The notes: generated by a model not told the origin, from the sequence alone. A DNA stretch of 64,000 bases from Terriglobia bacterium (GCA_963819015.1 CAWFUN010000007.1:677741-741740); one strand, 5' to 3'. Shown: positions 41,898 to 53,763, numbered from the stretch's first letter. Made by a program: numbers and translations.

Positions 41898-43253
41898 TCA
41901 GCAAAGGACGATTTTGTGGCGGTGCCGGGCAACGCGGCGCGTGGCATTGCGCGTGTCCACGACAAGCGCCGCCGCCTCAACGATCGCCTGATAATCGTAG
42001 CTGGTATGGTCCGTGGCGATGACGACGCAGTCGTAACTCTCGATCGTCCTCGCGTCCAGATTCACGGATTTTTTCTTGGAAAAGTCGTAATGGCGCATCT
42101 TCTGCATCGTGGGAAAGAAAGGATCGTTGTAGTCCAGCAGGGCTCCGCGCTGCTCGAGCAGCTGCATGATTTTCAGCGAGGGAGATTCCCGGGGATCGTC
42201 AATGTCCTTCTTGTACGCCACGCCGAGCACGAGCACTCGCGACCCCTTCAGCGATTTCTTCCGCTCGTTCAGCGCGCTGGAGATGGCCTCCACGACGTGG
42301 TAGGGCATAGCGGTGTTGATTTCGCCGGCCAGTTCGATGAAGCGCGTTGCAAAATCGAATTCGCGCGCCTTCCAGGAAAGGTAGAAGGGATCCACGGGAA
42401 TGCAGTGTCCGCCCAAGCCAGGCCCGGGATAGAAGGGCATAAAACCGAACGGCTTGGTGGCCGCCGCATCGATCACTTCCCAGATGTCCATGTTCATGCG
42501 CTGGCAGAGCATTTTCAGTTCGTTGACGAGCGCGATGTTCACGCAGCGGAAAATATTTTCGAGAAGTTTCGCCATCTCCGCCGCACGCGTGGTGCTGACG
42601 GGGACGACCCGCGCAACAATTTGCGCGTAGAGCGAGACTGCAGCGCGTCCCGACGGAGGATTGATCCCGCCCACGATCTTGGGAATCTGGGCCAAGCCGA
42701 ATTGCTTGTTTCCCGGATCTTCGCGCTCCGGCGAAAACGCCAGGAAGAAATCGGTGGCGGTCAGCTCCGCATCAGGCCCTTGCGCTACCGGACACCGCAA
42801 CCCACTCTCTTCCAGGATCGGCAGCACCAACTCCTCGGTGGTTCCAGGGTAGGTGGTGGATTCGAGGACGACCAGTTGCCCGCGAGTCAAATGAGGGGCG
42901 ATGGCGCGCGCGGTCTGCTCGACGTATTTCAAGTCCGGATCGCGCCGCTCGTCCAAAGGCGTCGGCACGCAGATCACGATCGCATCCATCGGGCCCAGCC
43001 GTGAGAAATCCGCGGTGGCGCCGAAGTGGCGCGACCTCACGTATTGCTGGATTTTTGTCGTGGGCACGTGACCGATGTAGCTCTGCCCGTCGTTGAGCAT
43101 TTCCACTTTCTTCGAGTCGCTATCGAACCCGGTGACACGGTGGCCCGCCTCCGCGAAGCGCAGCCCCAACGGGAGCCCAACATATCCGCACCCAATCACA
43201 CCGACGCGCAGTTGCGCGCCCTTGAAGAATTCCGGCTTCCGATCCACCGGCAT
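41898..43253 (-). CDS. nucleotide-sugar dehydrogenase (UDP-GlcNAc/UDP-ManNAc 6-dehydrogenase family)
   Basis: 451 aa; GVIGCGYVGLPLG Rossmann motif, catalytic GGHCIPVDP, and the length and motifs of the WbpA/WecC family. Confidence 0.9.
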   Translation of the reverse strand: MPVDRKPEFFKGAQLRVGVIGCGYVGLPLGLRFAEAGHRVTGFDSDSKKVEMLNDGQSYIGHVPTTKIQQYVRSRHFGATADFSRLGPMDAIVICVPTPLDERRDPDLKYVEQTARAIAPHLTRGQLVVLESTTYPGTTEELVLPILEESGLRCPVAQGPDAELTATDFFLAFSPEREDPGNKQFGLAQIPKIVGGINPPSGRAAVSLYAQIVARVVPVSTTRAAEMAKLLENIFRCVNIALVNELKMLCQRMNMDIWEVIDAAATKPFGFMPFYPGPGLGGHCIPVDPFYLSWKAREFDFATRFIELAGEINTAMPYHVVEAISSALNERKKSLKGSRVLVLGVAYKKDIDDPRESPSLKIMQLLEQRGALLDYNDPFFPTMQKMRHYDFSKKKSVNLDARTIESYDCVVIATDHTSYDYQAIVEAAALVVDTRNATRRVARHRHKIVLC

Positions 43254-43397
43254 GTGTCGTTCGCACCTTTCTCAAACGTGAAGCCCGCAAAGATAACCGC
43301 GGAAACGCCAGCTAAACTGGAATCGCGGCGCGCCACCACGGCAGAACTCGCTCCACGCGCCGATCGCGCGGGGTGGAAGCTCGCGCAGGAGCGAACG

Positions 43398-44048
43398 CTA
43401 CGACGCCACGCTCCGCTGCTGAAAGCAAAGCAGAATCAGATCCGCCCGACGGCGCACGCCGAACTTGCTCAGCAGATTCGAGACGTGAAACTTCACGGTT
43501 CGCTCCGAGATGTTCAGCTTCCCGGCGATTTCCTTGTTCGCCAGGTTCTCCAGCAGGCCGCTGAGCACCTCTTGCTCGCGGCGGCTCAATTCACTCGAAA
43601 CCTCGACCTGCACTCGCCGATTGCCCGGCCCGCTCAGGACGGAATCCACAAAACCGGAGAGCACCGACCGCGGAACCCAAAAACCTCCGCCCGCAACCAG
43701 CGGCAGCGCGCTATCCAAGTGGTCGCGCACTTCGGCGTACGTGAGCAACCCTTTGGCCCCGAGCCGCAGCAGCGCATAGCTCTCGGCCACATTCAGCTTT
43801 TCAGCAACAACCAGAATTCGCGCACCGGGGTAATGCTCCAGGATATTCGAGAGCAGCGCGCCGGCCGCGGCCCGCGCGACGTGCGCATCGACCACGAACA
43901 CTCCGGCTCGCGGCACGCTCATGCGCCGCAAATCCGGCCCAAGCGAAGATTCAAGCAGCCGCGGAATCAGCTTATAGCCCGAACCAGAAAGCACACGCTC
44001 AAATTCGCCCAGGACCAACGGATGCGGCGAGAGCAGACACACCGGCAT
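43398..44048 (-). CDS. LuxR-family transcriptional regulator with a degenerate receiver-like N-domain
   Basis: Internal ATG at 44048 of ORF 43398..44561. The C-terminal HTH LSRREQEVLSGLLENLANKEIAGKLNISERTVKFHVSNLLSKFGV is the LuxR type. The N-domain keeps VFVVDAH but lacks the acidic DD pair of canonical receivers. Confidence 0.7.
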   Translation of the reverse strand: MPVCLLSPHPLVLGEFERVLSGSGYKLIPRLLESSLGPDLRRMSVPRAGVFVVDAHVARAAAGALLSNILEHYPGARILVVAEKLNVAESYALLRLGAKGLLTYAEVRDHLDSALPLVAGGGFWVPRSVLSGFVDSVLSGPGNRRVQVEVSSELSRREQEVLSGLLENLANKEIAGKLNISERTVKFHVSNLLSKFGVRRRADLILLCFQQRSVAS

Positions 44049-44256
44049 GCTTCTCGTGCGTACCGTCTTCACCACGATTTTGGAGCGTATACGAATCCCG
44101 GCAAGCGGGCAAGGCTCTGTGAGGCCTCTTGTAACACTATAGTTATAGTCATCGCCACGTGTCGCGCTCACTCGCGGGCGGCCCGGCTTGTCGGCTTGGA
44201 CAAGTCTCGCGCATCGTTCCGCTACAGGCGCCGGGCCAAAGGGCAGAATACGGTTG

Positions 44257-44577
44257 ATGACGGAAGCGTCTCGAAGCCGGCGATACTCTCGTTTGCGCTT
44301 GCCGAAGGGCATGCTTGTCGCGTGGCAAGGCAGCGGGCTGCGTAAGGTTTCGCGTGTGTCGACCATCGGTCTCGGGGGAATCTTCATCTCCACGCCGACG
44401 CCTCCTCCCGTGGGCGAACTCCTCCGCCTGGTGTTCGATGTGCCATCCGGAGAGGTGAGGGCCCGCGCGGTCGTGCGCACTTCGGAGACGGGGCGCGGGA
44501 TGGGCGTGGAATTTACGGCGATGTCGCTCGAAGCGCGGGCACGCCTGGATAGACTGCTCAAACTGCTTCTTCGATAA
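44257..44577 (+). CDS. PilZ domain protein
   Basis: Start at MTEASRSRRYSRLRL (RxxxR), then STIGLGGIF (DxSxxG-like) and a C-terminal beta-barrel-like segment. The track ORF starts 23 codons earlier. Confidence 0.6.
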   Translation: MTEASRSRRYSRLRLPKGMLVAWQGSGLRKVSRVSTIGLGGIFISTPTPPPVGELLRLVFDVPSGEVRARAVVRTSETGRGMGVEFTAMSLEARARLDRLLKLLLR

Positions 44578-44593
44578 GAGTGGCCGGGAGCGC

Positions 44594-45028
44594 TTACCGC
44601 TGCGGGAACAGCAGCGCCTCAAACATGTCGGCTCGCGCTTTGTGATCCGAGGCGACCACCTGCAACAAATCCGCAACCGAAATCATTCCGCAGTAGACAC
44701 CCTTCGCGTCCAGGACCAGCAAATGGAAGATGCCGTACTTTTCCATTCGCCTCAGGCACTCATCCAGAGCGACTTCGGGAGAAATGCTGACGAGTTCGCG
44801 CGTCATGATCTCCGACACGCGCATCCATGCGGGACACTTGTTCTCCGCGGCGACTTTGTCTGAAATATCGCTCTGCGAGACGACTCCGGCGAGCCGGCCA
44901 TCCGCATCGAGCACACCGGCGGCGCGAACTTGTTTGTCACGCAAATAGCGCGCAGCCTCATGCACCGTGGCGTTTTCACTGATCGAAAATGTCTCCTTGC
45001 GGCCGCTGATCAATTCCTGGACAGTCAT
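44594..45028 (-). CDS. CBS domain-containing protein
   Basis: Start at MTVQELISG; two CBS motifs (VHEAARYLRDKQVRAAGVLDADGRLAGVVSQSDI and LDECLRRMEKYGIFHLLVLDAKGVYCGMISVADL). Confidence 0.75.
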   Translation of the reverse strand: MTVQELISGRKETFSISENATVHEAARYLRDKQVRAAGVLDADGRLAGVVSQSDISDKVAAENKCPAWMRVSEIMTRELVSISPEVALDECLRRMEKYGIFHLLVLDAKGVYCGMISVADLLQVVASDHKARADMFEALLFPQR

Positions 45029-45328
45029 GGGGCGCTCCTCGGAATGCCGGTTCGCCCGATAGTAGGACTCCCGGGCCGGCATCGCAAGGAGTTCGCGAAG
45101 CGATTGCGCCAGCCGGACGACCCTGCAATACGGGAGGGCTGGCTTTCAGGGGGTGTCGGCCTGGTCGGCAGGCTGCAAGAAGTCAGGAACCGGGCTGCAC
45201 TAAAACGGAAAGGAATTTCCACAACGTTGCCTTTCCCACGGTTCTCTGGCATCCCATAAGAAGAATCTCATAACTTATTGACAGTGAAGGGATTACTGAC
45301 GGTGCAGAACTGTGGAAATGCCCGGCGA

Positions 45329-45344
45329 CGGCACTCGATGTGCT
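45329..45344 (+). promoter_or_regulatory. candidate sigma54 (-24/-12) promoter upstream of the EBP gene
   Basis: cGGCACtcgatgTGCTg: GG at 45330-45331 and GC at 45342-45343 at canonical spacing, about 100 nt upstream of the ATG at 45444. Confidence 0.3.
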
Positions 45345-45443
45345 GATAAACACAGCAGGGGTATCAGGGTGAATGGGGGTCAATTCGCTCTGGCTTGCCT
45401 CCAGGTCCCAAATTACACAGGTCATTGGAAAGACAAGGCGCCC

Positions 45444-46496
45444 ATGGGAGCTTCGAGAGCGGTATTGTCCCGGCGAGTGGACGATCTGCCACCTGAGTCG
45501 CTGATCTTTGGGAAATCGCCTGCGATGCAGGCCGTGCGATTGAAGGTGGAGAAGATCGCCTCTACGTCCGTGCCGGTCCTCATCCAGGGGGACAGCGGAA
45601 CCGGCAAGGGTGTGCTGGCGCGCTACCTCCATGCCCGCTCCCCCGTCGCGAATGGCGCATTTGTGAAGGTGAACTGCGCGGCGATCCCAGGTCCGCTTCT
45701 GGAGAGCGAGCTGTTCGGGTACGAGCGGGGGGCCTTTACCGGCGCTTACTCCGCAAAGCCGGGGCGTGTGGAATTGGCGGAGGATGGGACACTCTTCCTC
45801 GACGGCATCAACGAAATTGGCTTCTCCCTTCAGGCGAAACTGCTGCACTTATTGCAAGACGGACAATTCTCCCGCATCGGAGGCCAAGAAGACCGCAGCA
45901 CCAGGACGCGCGTCATCTGCGCGACAAACCGCAACCTCGAGGAGGAAGTGGCTGCGGGCAGTTTCCGGCAGGACCTTTTCTACCGCATCAATGCACTGAC
46001 GCTGAACATGGTTCCGCTCCGGTCGCGAACGGAAGACATCCTTGATCTCGCGAGCTATTTCCTGGAATCGCACCAATCACGCCACGGGCAGCCCGCTCAT
46101 TCGTTTTCGCCCTCTTTGGCGCGGCAATTGGTGAAGTATCAATGGCCGGGAAACATCCGGGAGTTGGAAAATCTAATTGAGCGCTATGTGATCCTGGGAT
46201 CGGAAGATGCAATCAGCAGCGAACTGTTTGACCGTGTACCTCCGGCGGCTCCGGTGAGCGTACCGATCAGCGAGCCCATCCAACTCAAGAAGGTGACCCG
46301 CCAGGCAGTTCTGGACATGGAGCGGAGGATCATTCTCCGCGTGCTGGAAGCGAATCACTGGAATCGAAAGCGGGCCGCTGCAGCCCTTCAGATCAGCTAT
46401 CGGGCCCTGTTGTACAAGATTCGACAGGCGGGCCTGCCGCCGAAGAGATCGCGGATGGAGCTTCCCACAACAGATATCTCGAAAGGGATACTCTGA
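45444..46496 (+). CDS. sigma54-dependent transcriptional activator (PspF-like bEBP with no N-terminal regulatory domain)
   Basis: Start at MGASRAVLSRRVDDLPPESLIFGKSPAMQAV. Walker A GDSGTGKG, GAFTGA motif ESELFGYERGAFTGA, and a C-terminal Fis-type HTH (NRKRAAAALQISYRALLYKI). Only ~25 aa precede the AAA+ domain. Confidence 0.85.
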   Translation: MGASRAVLSRRVDDLPPESLIFGKSPAMQAVRLKVEKIASTSVPVLIQGDSGTGKGVLARYLHARSPVANGAFVKVNCAAIPGPLLESELFGYERGAFTGAYSAKPGRVELAEDGTLFLDGINEIGFSLQAKLLHLLQDGQFSRIGGQEDRSTRTRVICATNRNLEEEVAAGSFRQDLFYRINALTLNMVPLRSRTEDILDLASYFLESHQSRHGQPAHSFSPSLARQLVKYQWPGNIRELENLIERYVILGSEDAISSELFDRVPPAAPVSVPISEPIQLKKVTRQAVLDMERRIILRVLEANHWNRKRAAAALQISYRALLYKIRQAGLPPKRSRMELPTTDISKGIL

Positions 46497-46728
46497 GTGA
46501 GCGGTGGGGAGGAAGGAGACCATCCACCGCGTCAGGCGCCGGGAAGGATTCCGGGGCCAAGCGCGGCGAGATCAAAGTCCTGTGTAAGGCTTCAGAACCG
46601 AACCCCGAAATGTCCCGCAACGAACTGAACGACTCGGCAATTTCAAAATCGTGAACGCGTGTTCGCGTGGAGTTGCCGCAGGAGATGAACTTTCCACCGA
46701 AGGGCGTGGCGCAATAGGAGAAACCGGG

Positions 46729-47952
46729 TTACCCGCCCGGTCGAGAAAGAACATGTGTGAAGCGCATCTTGTACCGCAGGAAAGGTTGCTCCAGCCAGCG
46801 ATAGGAAACTGCCGCCAACAGGACTGTGATTGCGAGTGCCGCCGCGCCGGCCCCAAGGCCTCCCAGACGCATATGGTCTGCCACTGAGATCGAAAATATG
46901 TGATAGACGTAAAGCCCGTACGAAATTCGACCCAAATAGATTAACGAAGCACCAATCCGCCTGGGCAGTCGATCCAGTCTCATAGACAGGCTAACGAACA
47001 CCAAGGCCCCACACGAAAGTGCAACAACGGGATAGCCAATAAAAACGCTCGGCGGGTGAGGCCCACCGTCAACGGGTGCGAAACGCTCCACGAATACGGG
47101 CGCCAACAGGGCGGCAATTCCGAGCGTTCCTCCGACGATCCACGAGAGATTCGGCCGCTTTCCTTTCAACCAGACTGCGAGCAAGATGCCGCATGCTATG
47201 GAATCCAAGTGAGAGAACGTATTGCACCAGCCGGCGATGGGGCTTGCATGCGCGATCATCAACACCACGCGGCTCGCCGCGGCAACGAAAAACATCGCTA
47301 TCGCCACGGCCGCCAAACGTCCGATCCCGACCAAACGGACTATGAGGGGCCAAATCAGGTAGAACTGCTCCTCAAGCGAAACGCTCCAGAGGGCATCCGC
47401 CGAGGTCCTCGCGTATCCGCGGATTGCACAAATCCAATTACCAGTCAGCAGGAGAAAACACAGCAAGTAGGAGAGCGGCAGGCCATGGGAGTAGGGAAAA
47501 AACCGGGGCAATACGAACGTGGATAAACCCAGAAACATAAAGTACAGCGGCCAGATCCGCAGGATCCGACGCGCATAGAATCCGCGAACTTCGAGCTTTC
47601 CTGTGCTCAGAACTTCCCGGATCAATAATTCAGTAATTAAATAAGCGCTGAGGACGAAGAAAAGGTCGACCCCGTACTTGCCGGATGCAACCGTGGCTGA
47701 AATCCATTGGGCAGCAGACTTTGGCAGGCCGTGCCGCTGATAGCTTTCAAGATCAAGGGCGGTCGCCAGGTCGTGATACAAGAAAACGCCGAAGAAGGCC
47801 GCGAACCGCAAAGCGTCCAGCTCGGGCCTGTAGAAGCGCCCGCTCCGGCTGTCCAGTGCAGGCGATCGCTCGGGTTCGGCGGGAGGGGAGGCCGACCCCC
47901 AGGCTGGCGCGAGGGAAACGTCGGCTTGGATGGTCCTATCGGTAATCGTCAA
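46729..47952 (-). CDS. acyltransferase family 3 (OatA/WecH-like) membrane protein
   Basis: 407 aa, ~10 TM segments; N-terminal FYRPELDALRFAAFFGVFLYH and the SYYLY-like core of PF01757 O-acyltransferases. Confidence 0.8.
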   Translation of the reverse strand: MTITDRTIQADVSLAPAWGSASPPAEPERSPALDSRSGRFYRPELDALRFAAFFGVFLYHDLATALDLESYQRHGLPKSAAQWISATVASGKYGVDLFFVLSAYLITELLIREVLSTGKLEVRGFYARRILRIWPLYFMFLGLSTFVLPRFFPYSHGLPLSYLLCFLLLTGNWICAIRGYARTSADALWSVSLEEQFYLIWPLIVRLVGIGRLAAVAIAMFFVAAASRVVLMIAHASPIAGWCNTFSHLDSIACGILLAVWLKGKRPNLSWIVGGTLGIAALLAPVFVERFAPVDGGPHPPSVFIGYPVVALSCGALVFVSLSMRLDRLPRRIGASLIYLGRISYGLYVYHIFSISVADHMRLGGLGAGAAALAITVLLAAVSYRWLEQPFLRYKMRFTHVLSRPGG

Positions 47953-48060
47953 GCGATGACCTCATGTGGACCGGCAATTAGCCCGTCCAGGGGATGCCTA
48001 GTCTTGAGGGCGCTCGACGCTAGAAAGTTGGGCAGCAAATTGCCAGGCTATTGGAACGCT

Positions 48061-48168
48061 TCACAGCAACTGTGATTCGAATCGCTGATTCCCTATCAGC
48101 AGGATTGCCGACGCAATCCCAAGACAAACAACCGATGGCCCACCTATCCTCGTGAAGCGCGCAATCAT
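48061..48168 (-). pseudogene. 35-codon remnant ORF duplicating the start and signal peptide of the 808-aa secreted protein gene
   Basis: MIARFTRIGGPSVVCLGIASAILLIGNQRFESQLL* versus MIARVMKIVGLFAICLGVAGAMLLMGNQRFEP... of 48426..50852. About 130 nt of upstream leader (cctccgag..catgat.gcgcgc) is also conserved between the two sites. Confidence 0.4.
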
Positions 48169-48425
48169 GCTGTGCCTCCGAGACGAGACGGATGAGCGCC
48201 CCACGGCGCCGGGACACCCCTGGCAATAGCGATGGGAACACGACGGAGAAGACGCCCATGACGCCAGACGGAAGTTGCCCCGCTATTTAAGTATCAGAAT
48301 GAATGCAGGAGAGAGCAATAGCCCTGTGGTACTCGTGGTACTGGTGCTCCTGTGTAGTACACCAGGGCCTGCGTCGCCGGAGGGCGAGGGTGGAAGGTGA
48401 GGGTGGAGACCGTTATTAGCCGGCG

Positions 48426-50852
48426 CTATTGGATGGCGTTCTTAAAGCCGACTATGATCGCCCCATAACTGTTCGTGCCAGTCGCAGTGGCCGTGGCTGT
48501 GTAGCTGCCCGTGTTGGAAACGGCCATATCCTCGATGAGGCTGGTCGCGTCTATGAGTTCTACCGTGTAACCCGGGCCGGGCGTGAACGGATAGTCCTGG
48601 TAGTCCGCGAAGCCAAACAAGCCGATGACGGTTTCATATTGGGCGGTTGTGGCGCCGCTGGGTCCGGTGGTCAGCGCCAACGTCCCACTTCCCGTGTTCA
48701 TATGATACGTGCCTGCATCCAGAGGCGCGACCGTGTCGAGTCCCGAGTATTCGATCACATCAACTAAGGAAATATTCGCCACCGGCCCAGAGAAATTCGC
48801 GGTGACGCCGTTAGTGTAGGAAACATTCTTGGCGTACCAGGCCTGAATGTAGTTGCCTCCCCCCATGTCTATCTGCGGGCCGAGGGCGATAAACGTGTTC
48901 GCGCCGCCGGAGATCGTTGCCGTGATCCCCGCGCCATCCCAGTGCAAGAAGACCAAGAAGAGATCTCCAGGCGTCGGGATGAGGTTAAAATAAGTAGTCG
49001 TAGTTGTCACCCCAGGGCCGCCATCTCCCGACTGCTGTTGGACCACCACACCGTTGCTGCCGAGTCCCAGTTGAGATACTTGAACCGTGCAGCCTGTACC
49101 GGAAGTATCCCCATCGCACGGATACGTGGGGCTCGAATTTCCAATCCACGAGTAATAGATGTTAGCCCCGCCAGGCGAATTGCTGTCGTTGTCCACGACG
49201 ATTCCGCTCGCCCCGCCGCTGGCGGGTATCGCCCCCGCGATCTGTACAGTTCCGCCCGTGACCGCGGCTCCGTAGACGCACCCTTCTCCAGCGCAGGTCA
49301 TAGGTGCACCAACGCCGGCATTGCCGGCTGCCTGTACGCTAAAGAAAACGAAATCCGCGTTGCTGGTAGTGTTATAAAACTCGGAGACCGGAGAGCACTC
49401 CGTGCCGGCTACAGTGGCCGCTCTGAACTCCTCCGTCGCAGCGCCTATGGTCCCGCCCGTCACCGCGATTTGATAAAGCTCCGGCCGGTCCGGACCACCG
49501 TTATTCCCACAAACGTAGAGGTTCCCGGTCCCAGTCCCCGCGCCGGTGTCGCTGCTGTAATAAGCGTTATCGAAAACGCCCGAATGGAACGGGACGGTAT
49601 TTGCCGTTCCCACGAGCACGGGCCCCGTTTGTGTTCCGAGGGTGGCGGCGTCGGCTTCCCCAACCTCCGCTCCGGACGTAGTTCTGGCGAAGACGAAAAC
49701 CATGCCGGTGGTGCCGTCAACAATCGGCGGGTCCGTAATGCTGGTGGCTCCCGCGATCGTCCAACTTGCGCCCGCGGATGCGTTAAATGTGACGGGGGCC
49801 ACCGTTACGTAGCTCAGCTGGCCTGTGCTGTCTCCCACGAACACATGACCAGAAGTTTCGTCGTAGATGGGACCTGTCAACGCATGACCGGCGTTGACCG
49901 TGAACGGCCAGCCGGTGGAACCGCCGGACACTTCGGCTGGAGTGCCGTCGAAGATTCCGTTGAAGAGATGCAAGACGCCGGCGTCGTCACCCACAAATAT
50001 CATGTCGAAGGCATAGTCGTAGTAGGGCGAGGATGGAGTGATGGCGCCTGCTCCGCCGGTGTCGTCCGCACCGCCGGCGAAATCTATGCTGTAAAGGCAT
50101 CCCTGGTTGGTCGAGTTCGGCGTGCAGCTTCGAAAGGCACTGGCGGATGCGCTGTCCGTCAGCGTGACCGGCGAAGCCAGCGTGCCCGCGCCCCCCGTGT
50201 AGGGCTTGAGAATATGCAGCGTGGCCGTTCCACCCTTGCCCTCGACCCAAGCTACTTGCGTTCCATCCAAGGAAAGAATCGGAGACGTGATCGCCGCGCC
50301 GCCGTGGCTCTGCACGCTATAGGCCCAGAGTGTGCTGGGCACGCCCGAACACGTTCCGGTATAGAGTTCATTCAGGGAGTAGATGTCGGTAACGCCGGCG
50401 CCGGCCTGGCTTGTCGTGAACACGACGAAATCATTCGTGCAGTCGGGAGCGGCGTTCACATCGAAGGTGTACTTCGCAGGGAAGACGCCGTCGCCCATGG
50501 TGTAGCCGGCGCCGGGCATTACCTGCGCCCAATCCAGATGGATATTGTTTGGGGCTGGCTTGTTCTGCCGAAATCGGACCGGTTGGGGAAGCGGCCGTCT
50601 GCCGATCGGAGGGCGATGGGAAAAATTCCTGCGGAGAAATTGTTGGGCATATCTCGGCTGTCGCTGCACCTGCAAGTTCTGGATGATGGACTTCGGATGG
50701 GAATAAACCATGTGCCGATGAGACCAGTCCTGAACCACCGGGACGCGATTCGACCGTGGCTCAAATCGCTGATTCCCCATCAGAAGCATGGCCCCCGCCA
50801 CCCCAAGGCAGATTGCAAAAAGCCCAACGATCTTCATTACGCGCGCGATCAT
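48426..50852 (-). CDS. large secreted Gly/Thr/Ala-rich protein of unknown function, embedded in the EPS locus
   Basis: 808 aa; signal peptide MIARVMKIVGLFAICLGVAGAMLLMG; long low-complexity beta-rich sequence with many GxxG/TG turns; no catalytic motif recognised. Confidence 0.65.
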   Translation of the reverse strand: MIARVMKIVGLFAICLGVAGAMLLMGNQRFEPRSNRVPVVQDWSHRHMVYSHPKSIIQNLQVQRQPRYAQQFLRRNFSHRPPIGRRPLPQPVRFRQNKPAPNNIHLDWAQVMPGAGYTMGDGVFPAKYTFDVNAAPDCTNDFVVFTTSQAGAGVTDIYSLNELYTGTCSGVPSTLWAYSVQSHGGAAITSPILSLDGTQVAWVEGKGGTATLHILKPYTGGAGTLASPVTLTDSASASAFRSCTPNSTNQGCLYSIDFAGGADDTGGAGAITPSSPYYDYAFDMIFVGDDAGVLHLFNGIFDGTPAEVSGGSTGWPFTVNAGHALTGPIYDETSGHVFVGDSTGQLSYVTVAPVTFNASAGASWTIAGATSITDPPIVDGTTGMVFVFARTTSGAEVGEADAATLGTQTGPVLVGTANTVPFHSGVFDNAYYSSDTGAGTGTGNLYVCGNNGGPDRPELYQIAVTGGTIGAATEEFRAATVAGTECSPVSEFYNTTSNADFVFFSVQAAGNAGVGAPMTCAGEGCVYGAAVTGGTVQIAGAIPASGGASGIVVDNDSNSPGGANIYYSWIGNSSPTYPCDGDTSGTGCTVQVSQLGLGSNGVVVQQQSGDGGPGVTTTTTYFNLIPTPGDLFLVFLHWDGAGITATISGGANTFIALGPQIDMGGGNYIQAWYAKNVSYTNGVTANFSGPVANISLVDVIEYSGLDTVAPLDAGTYHMNTGSGTLALTTGPSGATTAQYETVIGLFGFADYQDYPFTPGPGYTVELIDATSLIEDMAVSNTGSYTATATATGTNSYGAIIVGFKNAIQ

Positions 50853-51269
50853 GCTAAGCCTCCGAGGCTAGACGGTTGTGTACCCCACACTGCAGAAATG
50901 CGACTGGCGACAGCGATGCCACAGCAAGCAAATCGATTGTCCCCCGACCCACGCAAACAGAACTACCGCTGACCCCAGACGGATGCTCCGCCCGTTACCT
51001 AAGTATGAAGATTGAGCAAGACAAGTTCAATAGGTTTGAAGGACTAGTAGGGCTATAGCTCCCATTTGACACAGGTGTCAGGGCGGTGCAGCCTGAAACA
51101 AGACCCCTTGCAATTCTCAACTAACCGATTTAGAAACAATGACTTACGGGTGAGGTACGGCAGGCCCTTAGCCCCTCTCTGGCGCAATTGAAAATGGACG
51201 ACCACGCCATTCGCTGCCAATTGGGGGTCTTAAATATGGGTCCAGCCGAGCCACAGCGCACGCCGACGC

Positions 51270-52649
51270 TCAAGCCCTAATTCCAGCCTCACGGGTCGAA
51301 CCGCTTAGGGTATACGCCAGACTTTCGCCATCGAGAGAGGCGTACGCAAGGCGGGCGCGTTCACTCCCGGGACCTTCGATTTCCCAGCGGCCATCCTTCC
51401 GGATCAGGCTCATTTGAGCGCGATCCCTCCACCACCGGTTCACATCCCGGGGGAGCGCCAACCAAACATCATGCGTCGAGCCCAGTGCGGCCAGGTAGGC
51501 AAGCAATTCCGAATACGTGGCGCGCGCGCGCTTTTCAATAATGTAATCGGGATGGACGACCGTGCAGATGAGGCCGTGCCCTTGCAGGATCAAGCCGATT
51601 TGCTTCTTCCAAAGATCGATCGAGTAATCGCGCAAAACGTGGAAGAGCGGGTAATCCTGGGTTGTGGTCAGTGGAATTTCCAGGATTTTGCCGATGAAGT
51701 AGGGAAACGTGGTGCAGCAGCCGCCAGGTTGGGGATCCAGATGGCCGACATTGGGCACGGACATGTCATAGGAGAACGTGAATTCATCGTACCAGTCGGT
51801 ATTGCGATACAACACACCCGAGCGAAAACCTTGCGCACCCCAGTCACTTGCGATCCGATTGATCTTGGCGGCACGGGAGAGAAAAGTGGCTCGATCGGAA
51901 TAGAGGTGTCCATCGTGGTTCCAGTCGTGGACATCCACTTCGAAGCCGCGGCGCTCGATCTCATCGCGGACTTGCTGAGAGGTGTGATAACGGCCCTCGG
52001 GAATGATTTGGAAAGAAGACTTTATTCCGTAGGAATCGTTCAGGTCCATAAGGGACGAGCAGAAATCGAGCCCGGTTTTTGTCTCAACGTCGTGGGTCAT
52101 GACGGCGCAAGCGGACTTTCCTTCCGGCCAAAACCAAATGAAGGGGATCTTCTCGCCCCCCCGGGCTTTCAGGGCAAATAACATCAGTCTCTCGAATATC
52201 TGATCGACGGAGCGGTCAACGGGCCAGCGAGGAAAGGGCTTTTGATCCCAACCCCGAAGCGAAATCCTCTGGAGGTGCTTGCGAATAGAAACCGGGAGGA
52301 TGGGCCGCACGGCGTAATAGGCCTTGCGGACCAGACCTCTATGAGCCAGCCCCCCGCCGTCAGAAGGACCATCGGCAACGTAGCGCTCGCAACGCAGGTT
52401 CTCGACGACAGAACCGGGATCGAACGAAATCAGGCAGGCGCCGCCGTCCATCCGCACATCGGAACTGGCGTCATGCAACTCACGGCGCACATCGTCCGAT
52501 GCAAAGGCCACGCCCACCTGGCCGTAGCCAATCGCCTCGGGCCCGAACTTGAAGAAGCCCGGCGCTCCCAATCCCGGCTGGATCAATGCGAGATTGAAGG
52601 AATCTTCGGGACAGCGAAAGAAATCGATCAGTGCTTCGTTGATTTTCAT
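51270..52649 (-). CDS. polysaccharide deacetylase family protein (CE4; PEP-CTERM-locus subfamily-like)
   Basis: Start at MKINEALIDFF. The CAVMTHDVETKTG (NodB-like TxDxE) and WNHDGH metal-binding motifs are typical of EPS-locus deacetylases. Confidence 0.8.
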   Translation of the reverse strand: MKINEALIDFFRCPEDSFNLALIQPGLGAPGFFKFGPEAIGYGQVGVAFASDDVRRELHDASSDVRMDGGACLISFDPGSVVENLRCERYVADGPSDGGGLAHRGLVRKAYYAVRPILPVSIRKHLQRISLRGWDQKPFPRWPVDRSVDQIFERLMLFALKARGGEKIPFIWFWPEGKSACAVMTHDVETKTGLDFCSSLMDLNDSYGIKSSFQIIPEGRYHTSQQVRDEIERRGFEVDVHDWNHDGHLYSDRATFLSRAAKINRIASDWGAQGFRSGVLYRNTDWYDEFTFSYDMSVPNVGHLDPQPGGCCTTFPYFIGKILEIPLTTTQDYPLFHVLRDYSIDLWKKQIGLILQGHGLICTVVHPDYIIEKRARATYSELLAYLAALGSTHDVWLALPRDVNRWWRDRAQMSLIRKDGRWEIEGPGSERARLAYASLDGESLAYTLSGSTREAGIRA

Positions 52650-52659
52650 AAGAGAAGCC

Positions 52660-53763
52660 TTACCCGATATGGCGGTAGAGGATTGCTCCCGCGGCAGAAA
52701 GAAGACGATTCGGCAGCAAGGGGAACACTTTGCGAGCAAGTTTCAGACTGAGCGTGCGTTCGCGGCCCGCGACCGGAGGCGGAGGATAACGGTAGTATCC
52801 GAGCTGCGAAACTTCGGCGGCAAAGTGCTCTTTGAAGGCGATGAGCCCCGGATTGTCGGTATCGCTCCGTCCAAAATCGAAGACCTCTGCGCCGGATTCC
52901 TTTGCGTCTTGAATCGCGCGCCAGACGAGAAAGGGGGTCCCGCCGAGATTGTTGCGTGCCGCATCAGAGCAGCCGTACTTGTACATGACGATCCGGTTGT
53001 GGGACAGGGTGAAGATGCTCGCGACGGGAATTCCATCCTTCATGGCGACCCGGATCAAGGCTTTTTCGCCCATGCAGAGCAAGAGGTTCCGAAACCACGA
53101 AAGGGGCTGAGGAGGCACTTCGTGGCGGCGACGCGTCTGTATCAGAAGCGAAAAGAACATTCGCAGCACTTCTTCGGAACGCCCTGCCTTCACGGCCAAT
53201 TTTTCCCGGTTCGCACGGTTGATCGGTTGCCGAACGCTCTTCTTGTTGAAGCGATTGAAGATCTCTTCGACGCTCGGGCGCAGATCCAGTTCATGAAGCG
53301 TATGGGTTGTGCAGTGGGCGAAGCCTGACCCCGGGTAAGGATCCGGCAATCCCGCGGGGAGCGGCCGCAACTCAATGTATTTCCAGTCCTCGTCCTCCTG
53401 ATACTGCCGGGCCTTGTTTAGAAGATTGGGAAGAGTTCCGGCGTCCTCGAATAGCGGGTCGCAGTGATCCGAGAAAGGCAGAGACACGATTCTCGGACCA
53501 GTGAGCCAGCTTCTGATCTTGCAGAGGACGAGGCCGTCCGAAAGAACTTCCCCCGGCTGGGCAGTTGTCAGGACAAACGGTTCGTACCCATAACTAACCT
53601 TTAGAGCCCTCAACCAGCCGGGAGTGTGGAATGCGCAGGCTCGCGGGTGCCCCTCGATGAACTCCGCCCAGCGACTGTCCTTCAGCGGATCTATTTCGCA
53701 GACGGGCGCAACCGATTCCGTCCGGTCGGGAAGATTCATCACGATCTGATCCATTGGCTGCAT
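52660..53763 (-). CDS. FemAB-family (GNAT-fold) protein, exopolysaccharide-locus associated
   Basis: 367 aa; resembles the FemAB-like proteins found in XrtA/PEP-CTERM EPS loci (FHTPGWLRAL..., LVWRAIQDAKESGAEVFDFGRS). Confidence 0.7.
   Translation of the reverse strand: MQPMDQIVMNLPDRTESVAPVCEIDPLKDSRWAEFIEGHPRACAFHTPGWLRALKVSYGYEPFVLTTAQPGEVLSDGLVLCKIRSWLTGPRIVSLPFSDHCDPLFEDAGTLPNLLNKARQYQEDEDWKYIELRPLPAGLPDPYPGSGFAHCTTHTLHELDLRPSVEEIFNRFNKKSVRQPINRANREKLAVKAGRSEEVLRMFFSLLIQTRRRHEVPPQPLSWFRNLLLCMGEKALIRVAMKDGIPVASIFTLSHNRIVMYKYGCSDAARNNLGGTPFLVWRAIQDAKESGAEVFDFGRSDTDNPGLIAFKEHFAAEVSQLGYYRYPPPPVAGRERTLSLKLARKVFPLLPNRLLSAAGAILYRHIG

Follow-up and report, generated by a model that had tools for sequence, protein, structure and literature searches.

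This locus raises the question of how the front end of a gene came to be present twice on the minus strand of a 64,000-nt stretch of DNA (the window analysed here), once before an intact gene encoding an 808-aa protein (p1) and once before a 35-codon stub, and what the second copy does there. Pairwise alignment revealed two homologous stretches, 48069-48320 and 50753-51032, of which 48069-48234 and 50753-50918 align without gaps at 71% identity (118/166; pairwise blastn E 2e-29). When the repeat was split at the ATG, the coding part was identical at 72 of 100 positions (72%) and the 66 nt upstream of the ATG at 46 (70%), while among 20,000 pairs of random 66-mers drawn from the window none exceeded 33/66. 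Beyond an indel of 27–29 nt, the similarity resumes at 78% (48259-48281 versus 50970-50992) and extends through the -10 and -35 hexamers to approximately 48320 and 51032. Each copy comprises a sigma-70-like promoter, a 5'UTR of about 115–145 nt, a GGAGG motif 6 nt upstream of the ATG (48179..48175 and 50863..50859) and the start of a transmembrane helix, and a leader profile found exactly these two copies in the 64-kb window. Because the homology includes the non-coding leader, it is not confined to the codons of the signal sequence, and the duplicated leader and start module described in an earlier note on this DNA, with its GGAGG, its ATG and a second copy that ends after 35 codons upstream of an acyltransferase gene, is real.

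Chance, convergent signal-peptide composition or an assembly chimera were conceivable only a priori (the window comes from a metagenome-type assembly), and the tests run refute them, leaving a negligible probability. The non-coding identity, the random pairs and the blastn score given above speak against coincidence, and the stub leader moreover has orthologues in other genomes. As to a chimera, the Logan assembly contig L094 (run ERR11594403) reproduces window positions 42717-49741 with one mismatch in 7025 nt; since both junctions described below are present in this second assembly, a mis-assembly specific to one assembler is unlikely.

The protein encoded by p1 had no family match in Pfam or NCBIfam, and its 263 homologues, all unnamed, are found in Acidobacteriota metagenomes and MAGs. 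An AF2 model (mean pLDDT 83) predicts an N-terminal transmembrane helix, a beta-propeller and a C-terminal beta-sandwich, and a Foldseek search of the PDB returned only generic beta-propellers (BamB, sialidases and WD40 proteins). At the N-terminus, a basic n-region (MIAR..K/R) precedes 19 hydrophobic residues, and the model shows a single helix over residues 2-26. As no cleavage motif was evident on inspection, it looks more like a signal anchor than a cleavable signal peptide.

The repeat is explained by synteny with related Acidobacteriota, whose Wzx/Wzy polysaccharide clusters end in one, two or three tandem paralogues of this gene (p1, p2 and p3). In loci L004, L087 and L091 an intact second paralogue of approximately 811–816 aa occupies the exact position of the stub, and begins with MI(S/L)R..RIGG.SVVCLGLASAMLLMG at the homologous ATG. 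Between 52000 and 48085 the window and L004 align without interruption, an interval that takes in p1, the intergenic region, the leader of p2 and its initial codons; homology to the relatives ends at 48069/48068 and restarts at 46647, corresponding to L004 position 14260, and the flanks share 82–93% nucleotide identity with the relatives. The L004 stretch absent from the window consists of the p2 body and a PAP2 gene, and the L004 p2 body matches p1 alone, with no second copy in the window. The stub leader is 77% identical to the L004 p2 leader over 238 nt, compared to 71% over 166 nt for the p1 leader of the window. The suggestion in the earlier note that a paralogue had been truncated is thus borne out by synteny and leader identity alike, and on these sequence comparisons the stub is very probably the remnant of a second tandem copy, p2, of the 808-aa gene. 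The coordinates of the features are collected in Table 1.

Table 1. Features of the paralogue array, the stub and the replacement segment, in window coordinates.
Feature	Position	Strand	Remarks
p1 leader (repeat copy B, non-coding)	50853..51032	-	Alignments of 14 and of 6 leaders
p1 promoter (candidate)	-35 TTGAAC 51030..51025, 17-nt spacer, -10 CATACT 51007..51002	-	Inferred TSS ~50995
p1, 808 aa	48426..50852	-	ORF; repeat copy B begins its coding part
Repeat copy B, coding part: p1 codons 1-33 (MIARVMKIVGLFAICLGVAGAMLLMGNQRFEPR)	50753..50852	-	Basic n-region and 19-residue hydrophobic helix
Stub leader (repeat copy A, non-coding)	48169..48320	-	Probable retained p2 promoter and 5'UTR; 77% to L004 p2 leader
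Stub promoter (candidate)	-35 TTGCTC 48318..48313, 17-nt spacer, -10 GATACT 48295..48290	-	Inferred TSS ~48284
Stub ORF, 35 codons + TGA	48061..48168	-	ATG 48168..48166, TGA 48063..48061
Left breakpoint	48068..48069	-	Homology to p1 and p2 of all relatives ends
Lineage-specific segment, ~1.42 kb	46648..48068	-	In place of p2 body and PAP2
AT3-only acyltransferase gene, 407 aa	47952..46729	-	TTG start, GAGG 7 nt upstream
Right flank, synteny resumes	46497..46647	-	L004 14260 onward, also L005 and L091; just downstream of convergent sigma-54 activator gene
Sigma-54-dependent activator (bEBP) gene	45312..46496	+	Beside paralogue array in all syntenic loci

Paralogues p1 and p2 share about 65% nucleotide identity, and their duplication is old and involved whole genes. 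Since the relatives differ both in paralogue number (1, 2 or 3) and in the gene occupying the distal slot (PAP2, a truncated PAP2, none, or a hexapeptide acetyltransferase), the distal end of the array is a hot spot for turnover.

A comparison of diagnostic sites resolved the stub (translation of its 35 codons: MIARFTRIGGPSVVCLGIASAILLIGNQRFESQLL) into parts of different origin. Bases diagnostic of p2 are found throughout its leader and codons 1-25, and roughly 20 nt at its 3' end, in codons ~26-33 (48093..48069), are of p1 type and include a 14-nt exact match to p1, which is probably the product of gene conversion. Codons 34-35 and the stop derive from the incoming DNA, the stop lying two codons past the break. 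The breakpoint itself falls in the middle of a short palindrome, TCACAG-TTG-CTGTGA (48075..48061).

The lineage-specific segment between the junctions showed no homology to L001, L004, L005, L006 or L091, and no second copy of it was found in the window or in loci L001-L093. It contains a single gene, which starts 108 nt downstream of the stub and is followed by 81 nt of the segment. The gene product matches Pfam PF01757 (AT3; E 2.3e-24, 86.5 bits against a cut-off of 31) over residues 44-382 of 407; this is its sole domain, with no fused SGNH domain (architecture classes taken from PMC9558356), and its homologues are named OafA/YrhL-type O-acetylases by JGI. An N-terminal extension is common to the homologues, and the gene is complete with a native N-terminus. 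An in-frame fusion of stub and acyltransferase was considered, as the two share a frame 216 nt apart, and was rejected because three in-frame stops lie between them and the AT3 N-terminus is native. The gene lacks a close relative, as the nearest one known has 64% amino acid identity and an unrelated context: on its contig, L084, only the coding region matches, at 66% nucleotide identity, and the flanks are unrelated, so L084 was discarded as a source of the segment. The GC content (57%, compared to 57–60% in neighbouring genes) shows no compositional anomaly. There is likewise no sign of a mobile element, as the 1.42-kb segment encodes no transposase or integrase; no target duplication or direct repeats were found at the two junctions, and no inverted repeats were seen there on inspection. 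The neighbourhood includes genes for Wzx, Wzy, GT2 and pyruvyl-transferase, a context that supports putative O-acylation of a surface glycan by the AT3 enzyme.

Synteny and sequence together point to an ancestor with tandem p1 and p2 genes, encoding membrane-anchored beta-propeller proteins, at the distal end of a Wzx/Wzy-type cluster and followed by the PAP2 gene and the convergent sigma-54 activator gene. Each paralogue had its own 5' module, comprising promoter, a 5'UTR of 115–145 nt, GGAGG, ATG and the start of a transmembrane helix. In this lineage, a stretch of about 1.4 kb with a stand-alone AT3 (OafA/YrhL-type) O-acyltransferase gene most probably replaced p2 from codon 34 on, together with PAP2, leaving the p2 5' module and 33 codons to run into the incoming DNA and stop after 35 codons; before or after the replacement, the last few codons of p2 type were probably converted to p1 sequence. 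A newly acquired polysaccharide-modifying enzyme may in this way have been put under former p2 control, with the 35-residue peptide as a by-product upstream ORF. We assign a probability of about 0.85 to this reading as a whole, that is, a p2 remnant whose body was replaced by the AT3 gene and whose promoter possibly drives that gene. That AT3 replaced p2 is the more parsimonious order given a small number of relatives; in the opposite order, the AT3 gene would be ancestral and p2 and PAP2 later arrivals. The stub is a gene remnant of an ordinary sort, in the variable terminal part of a polysaccharide locus, and no new kind of element.

Promoters in Acidobacteriota are, to our knowledge, poorly known. 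Of 14 leaders compared with one another, 13 have the pattern TTGnnn-17-nATAnT at a constant distance, as does the distant L092, and only the sequence of the spacer drifts, which points to a candidate sigma-70-like promoter with conserved hexamer positions in both leaders of the window. The stub hexamers are weak compared to the consensus (3/6 and 4/6) and fall under the threshold of a standard promoter scan; the relaxed pattern occurs once per ~2.4 kb on the minus strand. Downstream of the predicted start sites, the 5'UTRs share conserved blocks, namely AACGGG..ATCCGTCTGG at the 5' terminus, TCGCCAG, and CCGTCT immediately upstream of the Shine-Dalgarno (SD) sequence. The p1 5'UTR of ~143 nt additionally has a p1-specific insert of 27–29 nt, and CCGTCTAGCCTCGGAGGC before the ATG; the stub leader, with a 5'UTR of ~115 nt, keeps all conserved promoter and SD elements. 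A sigma-54 promoter common to both copies, which the neighbouring bEBP might serve, was also considered, given a -24/-12-like element in the p1 leader (TGGCATcgctgTCGC, 50922..50908). This was rejected as only p1 leaders have the element and its -12 GC varies, being GT in L004 p1 and AC in L062, with the whole element absent in L092; the -24 GG lies within the 27–29-nt segment missing from all p2-type leaders, including that of the stub. The word TGGCAATTTGCTGCC in the new DNA (48046..48032) was dismissed as a sigma-54 site because its GG-GC spacing is wrong.

Whether the stub promoter is at work divides the two most credible accounts of the remnant. As an intact p2 promoter, ribosome-binding site and ATG are aimed at the AT3 gene 108 nt away, and a scan of these 108 nt found no promoter-like or terminator-like site, the relic promoter would most likely supply, or add to, AT3 transcription; judging from sequence, we see even odds that it is still active and drives the AT3 gene. 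The same p2 remnant could instead be functionally dead and decaying, with AT3 expression coming from read-through of p1 or of the cluster operon, which is possible because a terminator scan predicted none downstream of p1, or from an unrecognised promoter of its own; we consider this a real contender, if somewhat less likely than not. It agrees with a substitution rate about 2–3 times higher in the stub leader than in the p1 leader (15/149 versus 7/178 lineage-specific substitutions, Fisher p~0.04), an asymmetry that the p1 and p2 leaders of L004 and L091 do not show, and with the fact that 4 of the 15 window-specific changes fall in columns that 11 or more of the remaining 13 leaders conserve. 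It sits less well with the intact -35 TTG, -10 GATACT, 17-nt spacing, GGAGG and ATG and a frame open to the breakpoint, with the lack of a promoter-like site in the 108 nt before the AT3 start, and with a stub-leader branch length (0.127) below that of the unconstrained region upstream of the -35 hexamer (0.16–0.23). The faster change of the stub leader, taken by itself, fits relaxed constraint in a decaying relic as well as it fits retained function.

The earlier note had suggested a reused promoter/5'-UTR cassette, possibly carrying a cis-regulatory RNA, that now feeds the acyltransferase. A reading in which such a unit was duplicated by itself to regulate the acyltransferase would agree with the persistence of the 5'UTR blocks (those with ATCCGTCTGG, TCGCCAG and CCGTCT) between paralogues at ~65–70% overall identity. 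The RNA part gained no support from Rfam, fold stability or covariation: a search of 46500-51400 against Rfam 15 in E-value mode returned one spurious lncRNA match only (E 0.7), the folding energies of the leaders were not unusual compared to shuffled controls (MFE z-scores -0.47 and -0.62), and RNAalifold on 12 leaders, few and closely related so that its power is limited, gave a consensus of -2.69 kcal/mol with a covariation term of -0.1, the conserved pairs being invariant rather than compensatory. The cassette fared no better. When 241 M metagenome records were scanned for exact matches to the SD-proximal motif, six were found, five of them upstream of genes of this family and the sixth (L090) a chance match inside a 571-aa CDS, and nhmmer matches of the leader profile over 93 loci were confined to a clade with at least 54% amino acid identity. 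With the leader found only before this gene family in a narrow clade, and whole genes duplicated, it is not a cassette; furthermore, the stub retains 33 family codons at the exact syntenic position of p2, which marks it as the leftover of a deletion and not an inserted cassette. We regard an RNA element or portable cassette as very unlikely. A real small-protein gene, encoding a 35-residue single-pass membrane peptide with a function of its own or a role in the co-translational targeting of the mRNA for the polytopic AT3 protein to the membrane, is scarcely more probable. The intact SD-ATG, the 19-residue hydrophobic segment (Kyte-Doolittle mean 2.06) and the frame open to the junction would suit it, but 8 of 28 residues are changed compared to L004 p2, a helix-unfavourable Pro11 is present, the junction created the last two codons and the stop by accident, and neither the metagenome pattern scan nor nhmmer over the 93 loci revealed another genome with such a stub. 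In genome annotations the stub should be entered as a fragment of a pseudogene, and no small protein should be called there. Equally doubtful is an elaboration in which the retained p2 front end is an exapted adaptor, whereby AT3 would be regulated like the beta-propeller paralogues and translation of the signal-anchor peptide would hold mRNA and ribosome at the membrane, aiding insertion of the 10-helix AT3 protein.

The p2 remnant resembles truncated genes that replacement or recombination has left in surface-polysaccharide loci, such as galE2 in Region D' of the meningococcal cps island (PMC5349592). As there, a 5' fragment of a duplicated gene survives beside its intact counterpart on the margin of a polysaccharide cluster and marks a past rearrangement or acquisition. 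Unlike galE2, the stub keeps a complete module of promoter, UTR, ribosome-binding site and ATG aimed at a newly arrived gene, it comes from an acidobacterium that is uncultured, and its parent gene is one of an uncharacterised family of beta-propeller genes. Stand-alone AT3 (PF01757) O-acyltransferases such as Oac/OacA, WbaK and WecH modify O-antigen or EPS, and genes of this type are typically modification functions added to a locus and differ from strain to strain (PMC9558356; PMC7448272; PMC9833829). The enzyme described here resembles them in being an AT3-only membrane protein in a Wzx/Wzy polysaccharide cluster. It differs in having no SGNH partner domain, in its distance from the nearest relative (64% identity), and in that its gene apparently replaced a resident gene instead of arriving on a prophage or at a distant locus. 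A literature search turned up no paper that treats gene remnant, O-antigen, acetyltransferase and promoter together. The locus is a clean, datable case of turnover in the variable terminal part of an exopolysaccharide or O-antigen-like locus in an acidobacterium, where tandem paralogues expand and contract and where a modification gene can replace a resident gene and would inherit its expression signals.

In promoter capture, an acquired gene becomes transcriptionally fused to a resident promoter, with an upstream ORF. The anatomy seen here would conform to this, with resident promoter, short ORF, 108 nt and foreign gene on one strand and no terminator predicted; in contrast to an evolved attenuator leader peptide, the stub ORF is an accidental product of truncation. 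The leader alignment also yields a candidate promoter and 5'UTR for a family of membrane-anchored beta-propeller proteins that is abundant but uncharacterised in the Acidobacteriota of soil and peat. Polysaccharide operons are known to carry leader elements that recruit NusG paralogues, such as JUMPstart/ops with RfaH, UpxY or LoaP, and the leaders described here are similar in being long, conserved 5'UTRs before polysaccharide-cluster genes. The p1 UTR contains GCGGTAG (50969..50963), which corresponds to 7 of 8 bases of the ops core. Neither L004 p1 nor any of the p2 leaders conserves this word, and it was treated as a chance match.

The leader and start of the 808-aa gene (p1) recur upstream of the acyltransferase (AT3) gene, as the earlier note had claimed, where they open a reading frame of only 35 codons (the stub). 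An ungapped alignment of 48069-48234 with 50753-50918 shows 71% identity (118/166; pairwise blastn E 2e-29). The similarity is not limited to the signal peptide: it is as strong in the 66 nt leading up to the ATG (46/66, 70%) as in the coding part (72/100), and among 20,000 pairs of random 66-mers taken from the window none scored above 33/66. Beyond an indel of 27-29 nt the upstream match resumes (78% over 23 nt), and the repeat then extends across two promoter-like hexamers to about 48320 and 51032, respectively. Motif and profile searches found exactly two leader copies in the 64-kb window. In another assembly, a Logan contig from run ERR11594403 covers window positions 42717-49741 and differs at a single one of 7025 nt; the arrangement is thus not peculiar to one assembly.

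Features of the stub region and its surroundings in window coordinates
Feature	Position	Strand	Remarks
808-aa ORF (p1)	48426-50852	-	ATG 50852
Stub ORF, 35 codons, MIARFTRIGGPSVVCLGIASAILLIGNQRFESQLL	ATG 48168, TGA 48063..48061	-	
AT3 ORF, 407 aa	47952-46729	-	TTG start, GAGG 7 nt upstream
p1 hexamers	TTGAAC 51030..51025, CATACT 51007..51002	-	leader alignment
Stub hexamers	TTGCTC 48318..48313, GATACT 48295..48290	-	leader alignment
(A/T)(T/A)CCGTCT words, p1	50976-50985, 50867-50876	-	
(A/T)(T/A)CCGTCT words, stub	48265-48274, 48183-48192	-	
Dyad-like blocks	~48335-48365, ~51045-51075	-	
Sigma-54-like word TGGCATcgctgTCGC	50908-50922	-	p1 leader
GCGGTAG	50963-50969	-	p1 5'UTR
Breakpoint palindrome	48061-48075	-	centred on 48069/48068
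489-aa ORF	51270-52739	-	directly 5' of p1
Sigma-54 activator gene (bEBP)	45312-46496	+	
Genes upstream of p1		-	489-aa ORF without family, FemAB/GNAT-like, polysaccharide pyruvyl transferase, GT2 glycosyltransferases, Wzx-like flippase, Wzy-like polymerase
Genes downstream of p1			AT3, convergent sigma-54 activator, then CBS, LuxR-type, UDP-glucose dehydrogenase

Comparison with syntenic loci of relatives indicates, with a probability of about 0.9, that the stub is the 5' end of p2, the second tandem paralogue, and the earlier suggestion of a truncated paralogue was right. This assignment follows from three observations. The window is collinear with the related locus L004 from 52000 down to 48085 (82% identity), which takes in p1, the intergenic region between p1 and p2, the leader of p2 and its opening ~28 codons; beyond that point homology is lost until 46647 (L004 14260), where it restarts at 90% identity. 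The stub leader is closer to the L004 p2 leader (77% over 238 nt) than to the p1 leader of the window (71% over 166 nt). Finally, an intact 811-816-aa gene, starting MI(S/L)R..RIGG.SVVCLGLASAMLLMG, opens at the homologous ATG in the relatives' loci L004, L087 and L091. Among related loci, one paralogue is followed by PAP2 in L001, L002, L003 and L006, two tandem paralogues by PAP2 in L004 and L086/L087 and by a truncated PAP2 (136 aa) in L091, and L005 has three without PAP2. The same convergent sigma-54 activator gene ends the array in every syntenic locus compared, and the slot before it holds PAP2, truncated PAP2, nothing, AT3 (window) or, in the more distant locus L092, a hexapeptide acetyltransferase; evidently, modification genes are gained and lost at this position. 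In the window, ~1.42 kb (48068-46648) occupy the place of the relatives' p2 body and PAP2 (3.5 kb in L004).

The 407-aa product of the incoming gene has Acyl_transf_3 as its single domain (86.5 bits), which is the stand-alone AT3 layout known from many O-acetyltransferases of O-antigen and EPS (PMC9558356). Its nearest relative among 5.8 billion proteins searched shares 64% identity and is encoded in unrelated surroundings, whereas the genes flanking the segment share 82-93% DNA identity with relatives. No second AT3 copy was found in the window or in the compared loci L001-L093, the GC content of the gene is unremarkable, and no mobile-element hallmarks were seen for the segment and its junctions. 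The N-terminal extension of 39 residues can be aligned with the corresponding part of homologues, and the gene is therefore complete and not fused to the stub. Such a fusion was ruled out: the two share a frame, but three stops lie between them and the extension is shared with homologues.

A site-by-site classification found p2-diagnostic bases throughout the stub leader and codons 1-25. Adjoining the break is a ~20-nt p1-type tract (GCGATTCGAATCACAGT, ending at 48069), preceded by a 14-nt exact p1 match and most simply explained as a short gene-conversion tract. Beyond 48069/48068 no homology to any paralogue remains, and codons 34-35 and the stop derive from incoming DNA. The breakpoint is the centre of a small palindrome, TCACAG-TTG-CTGTGA (perfect 6-bp arms around 3 nt), the last three bases of which form the stub TGA; it may have been left by the rearrangement mechanism or be there by chance.

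Fourteen leaders were aligned (those of p1 and p2 type from six genomes, all three of the L005 paralogues and that of the homologue L062), and L092, more distant at 54% protein identity, was included in a second alignment. Conserved were TTGnnn and (G/C)ATAnT separated by a 17-nt spacer of variable sequence; this pattern of fixed spacing and drifting spacer sequence marks a predicted sigma-70-type promoter, from which transcription would start at ~50995 (p1) and ~48284 (stub). A standard promoter scan gave no match at either site because the hexamers total only 7-8/12. A relaxed pattern, occurring once per 2.4 kb on the minus strand, picked exactly the p1 and stub sites among the intergenic regions examined and was absent from the 108 nt between stub and AT3 start. 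Also conserved were AACGGG..ATCCGTCTGG directly 3' of the hexamers, at the inferred RNA 5' end, a TCGCCAG block, and a second CCGTCT just 5' of TCGGAGGC-N4-6-ATG. The (A/T)(T/A)CCGTCT word stands twice per 5'UTR, at the inferred RNA 5' end and just 5' of the SD, in p1, p2 and the L005 paralogues alike; its conservation shows no covariation, and it is a possible protein-binding site.

Most leaders also carry, 25-60 nt 5' of the -35, a dyad-like block GGTGTAc..(N)..GCACCAGTAC (L004 10478-10505, and 5' of each L005 paralogue), a candidate activator or operator site. Genes for LuxR-type and bEBP regulators are found nearby. The sigma-54-like -24/-12 word falls inside the p1-only 27-29-nt insert, close to the conserved sigma-54 activator gene. 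The -12 GC varies among p1 orthologues (it differs in L004 p1 and L062), and neither L092 nor any p2-type leader has the word; in the p2-type leaders, the stub included, the -24 GG is missing. GCGGTAG matches 7/8 bases of the enterobacterial ops/JUMPstart core, which occurs exactly as GGCGGTAG in L085, another locus compared; in p1 it is probably due to chance, as it is not conserved in L004 p1 or in the p2 leaders generally.

The proposal that the leader is a portable promoter/5'-UTR cassette, possibly with a cis-regulatory RNA, found no support. An Rfam search gave no match, and neither of the two UTRs is more stably folded than shuffled controls (z = -0.47 and -0.62). RNAalifold on 12 distinct leaders returned -2.69 kcal/mol (covariation term -0.1), and the small number of pairs it predicts are invariant and not compensatory. 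In a metagenome collection the SD-proximal motif occurred in five real leaders, all 5' of full-length family genes, plus one chance match inside a CDS, and an nhmmer leader profile matched in the close clade only. The conserved UTR blocks could be protein-binding sites or 5'-end stability determinants.

The stub module is intact in -35, -10, spacing, SD, ATG and reading frame up to the break, it points at the AT3 gene, and no promoter-like or terminator-like site was found in between; from this layout we infer that the leader may feed the acyltransferase. A module recently orphaned and under relaxed constraint would also fit. In a three-taxon comparison (window, L004, L091) the terminal branch of the stub leader is 0.127, against 0.038 for the window p1 leader, whereas the p1 and p2 branches are about equal in L004 and L091. 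Window-specific changes number 15/149 versus 7/178 (Fisher p~0.04), with four of the 15 hitting columns conserved in at least 11 of 13 other leaders. This excess partly reflects conversion towards p1 states, and the stub branch remains below the 0.16-0.23 obtained for unconstrained sequence 5' of the -35. Retention of the module as the acyltransferase promoter, with looser requirements, is on these sequence data an even bet.

The locus forms the distal end of a polysaccharide cluster of the Wzx/Wzy type. Truncated remnants beside intact copies are familiar rearrangement footprints in surface-polysaccharide loci, e.g. galE2 in the meningococcal cps region (PMC5349592), and strain-variable AT3 O-acetyltransferases are a standard route to polymer diversity (PMC9558356, PMC7448272). 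Like the galE2 remnant, the stub is a truncated gene beside an intact copy in a polysaccharide locus, and adds an example from an uncultured acidobacterial lineage; of modest extra interest is that it keeps a whole expression module aimed at the newcomer gene.

The 489-aa ORF, which has a 459-aa counterpart in syntenic loci, and the 808-aa protein had no match in Pfam or NCBIfam. All 263 homologues of the latter are unnamed, and essentially all derive from Acidobacteriota MAGs and soil/peat metagenomes. The closest genome-collection orthologue (81%) lies in a MAG labelled Candidatus Methylomirabilota (L006, L062; DASPOJ01 contigs), likely a binning or labelling issue; the other relatives are all Acidobacteriota. 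The AlphaFold model (mean pLDDT 83) predicts a helix at the N-terminus (residues 2-26), followed by a disordered linker, then a beta-propeller (~105-600) and finally a beta-sandwich (~600-808), with PDB matches to generic propellers only. The family, of TM helix, beta-propeller and beta-sandwich, is large and acidobacterial, and most homologues cover ~70-74% of the query, the C-terminal ~200 residues being absent or different. Eight cysteines are invariant (positions 138-588 of the first sequence), and a DW(T/S)HRH motif is conserved C-terminal to the anchor.
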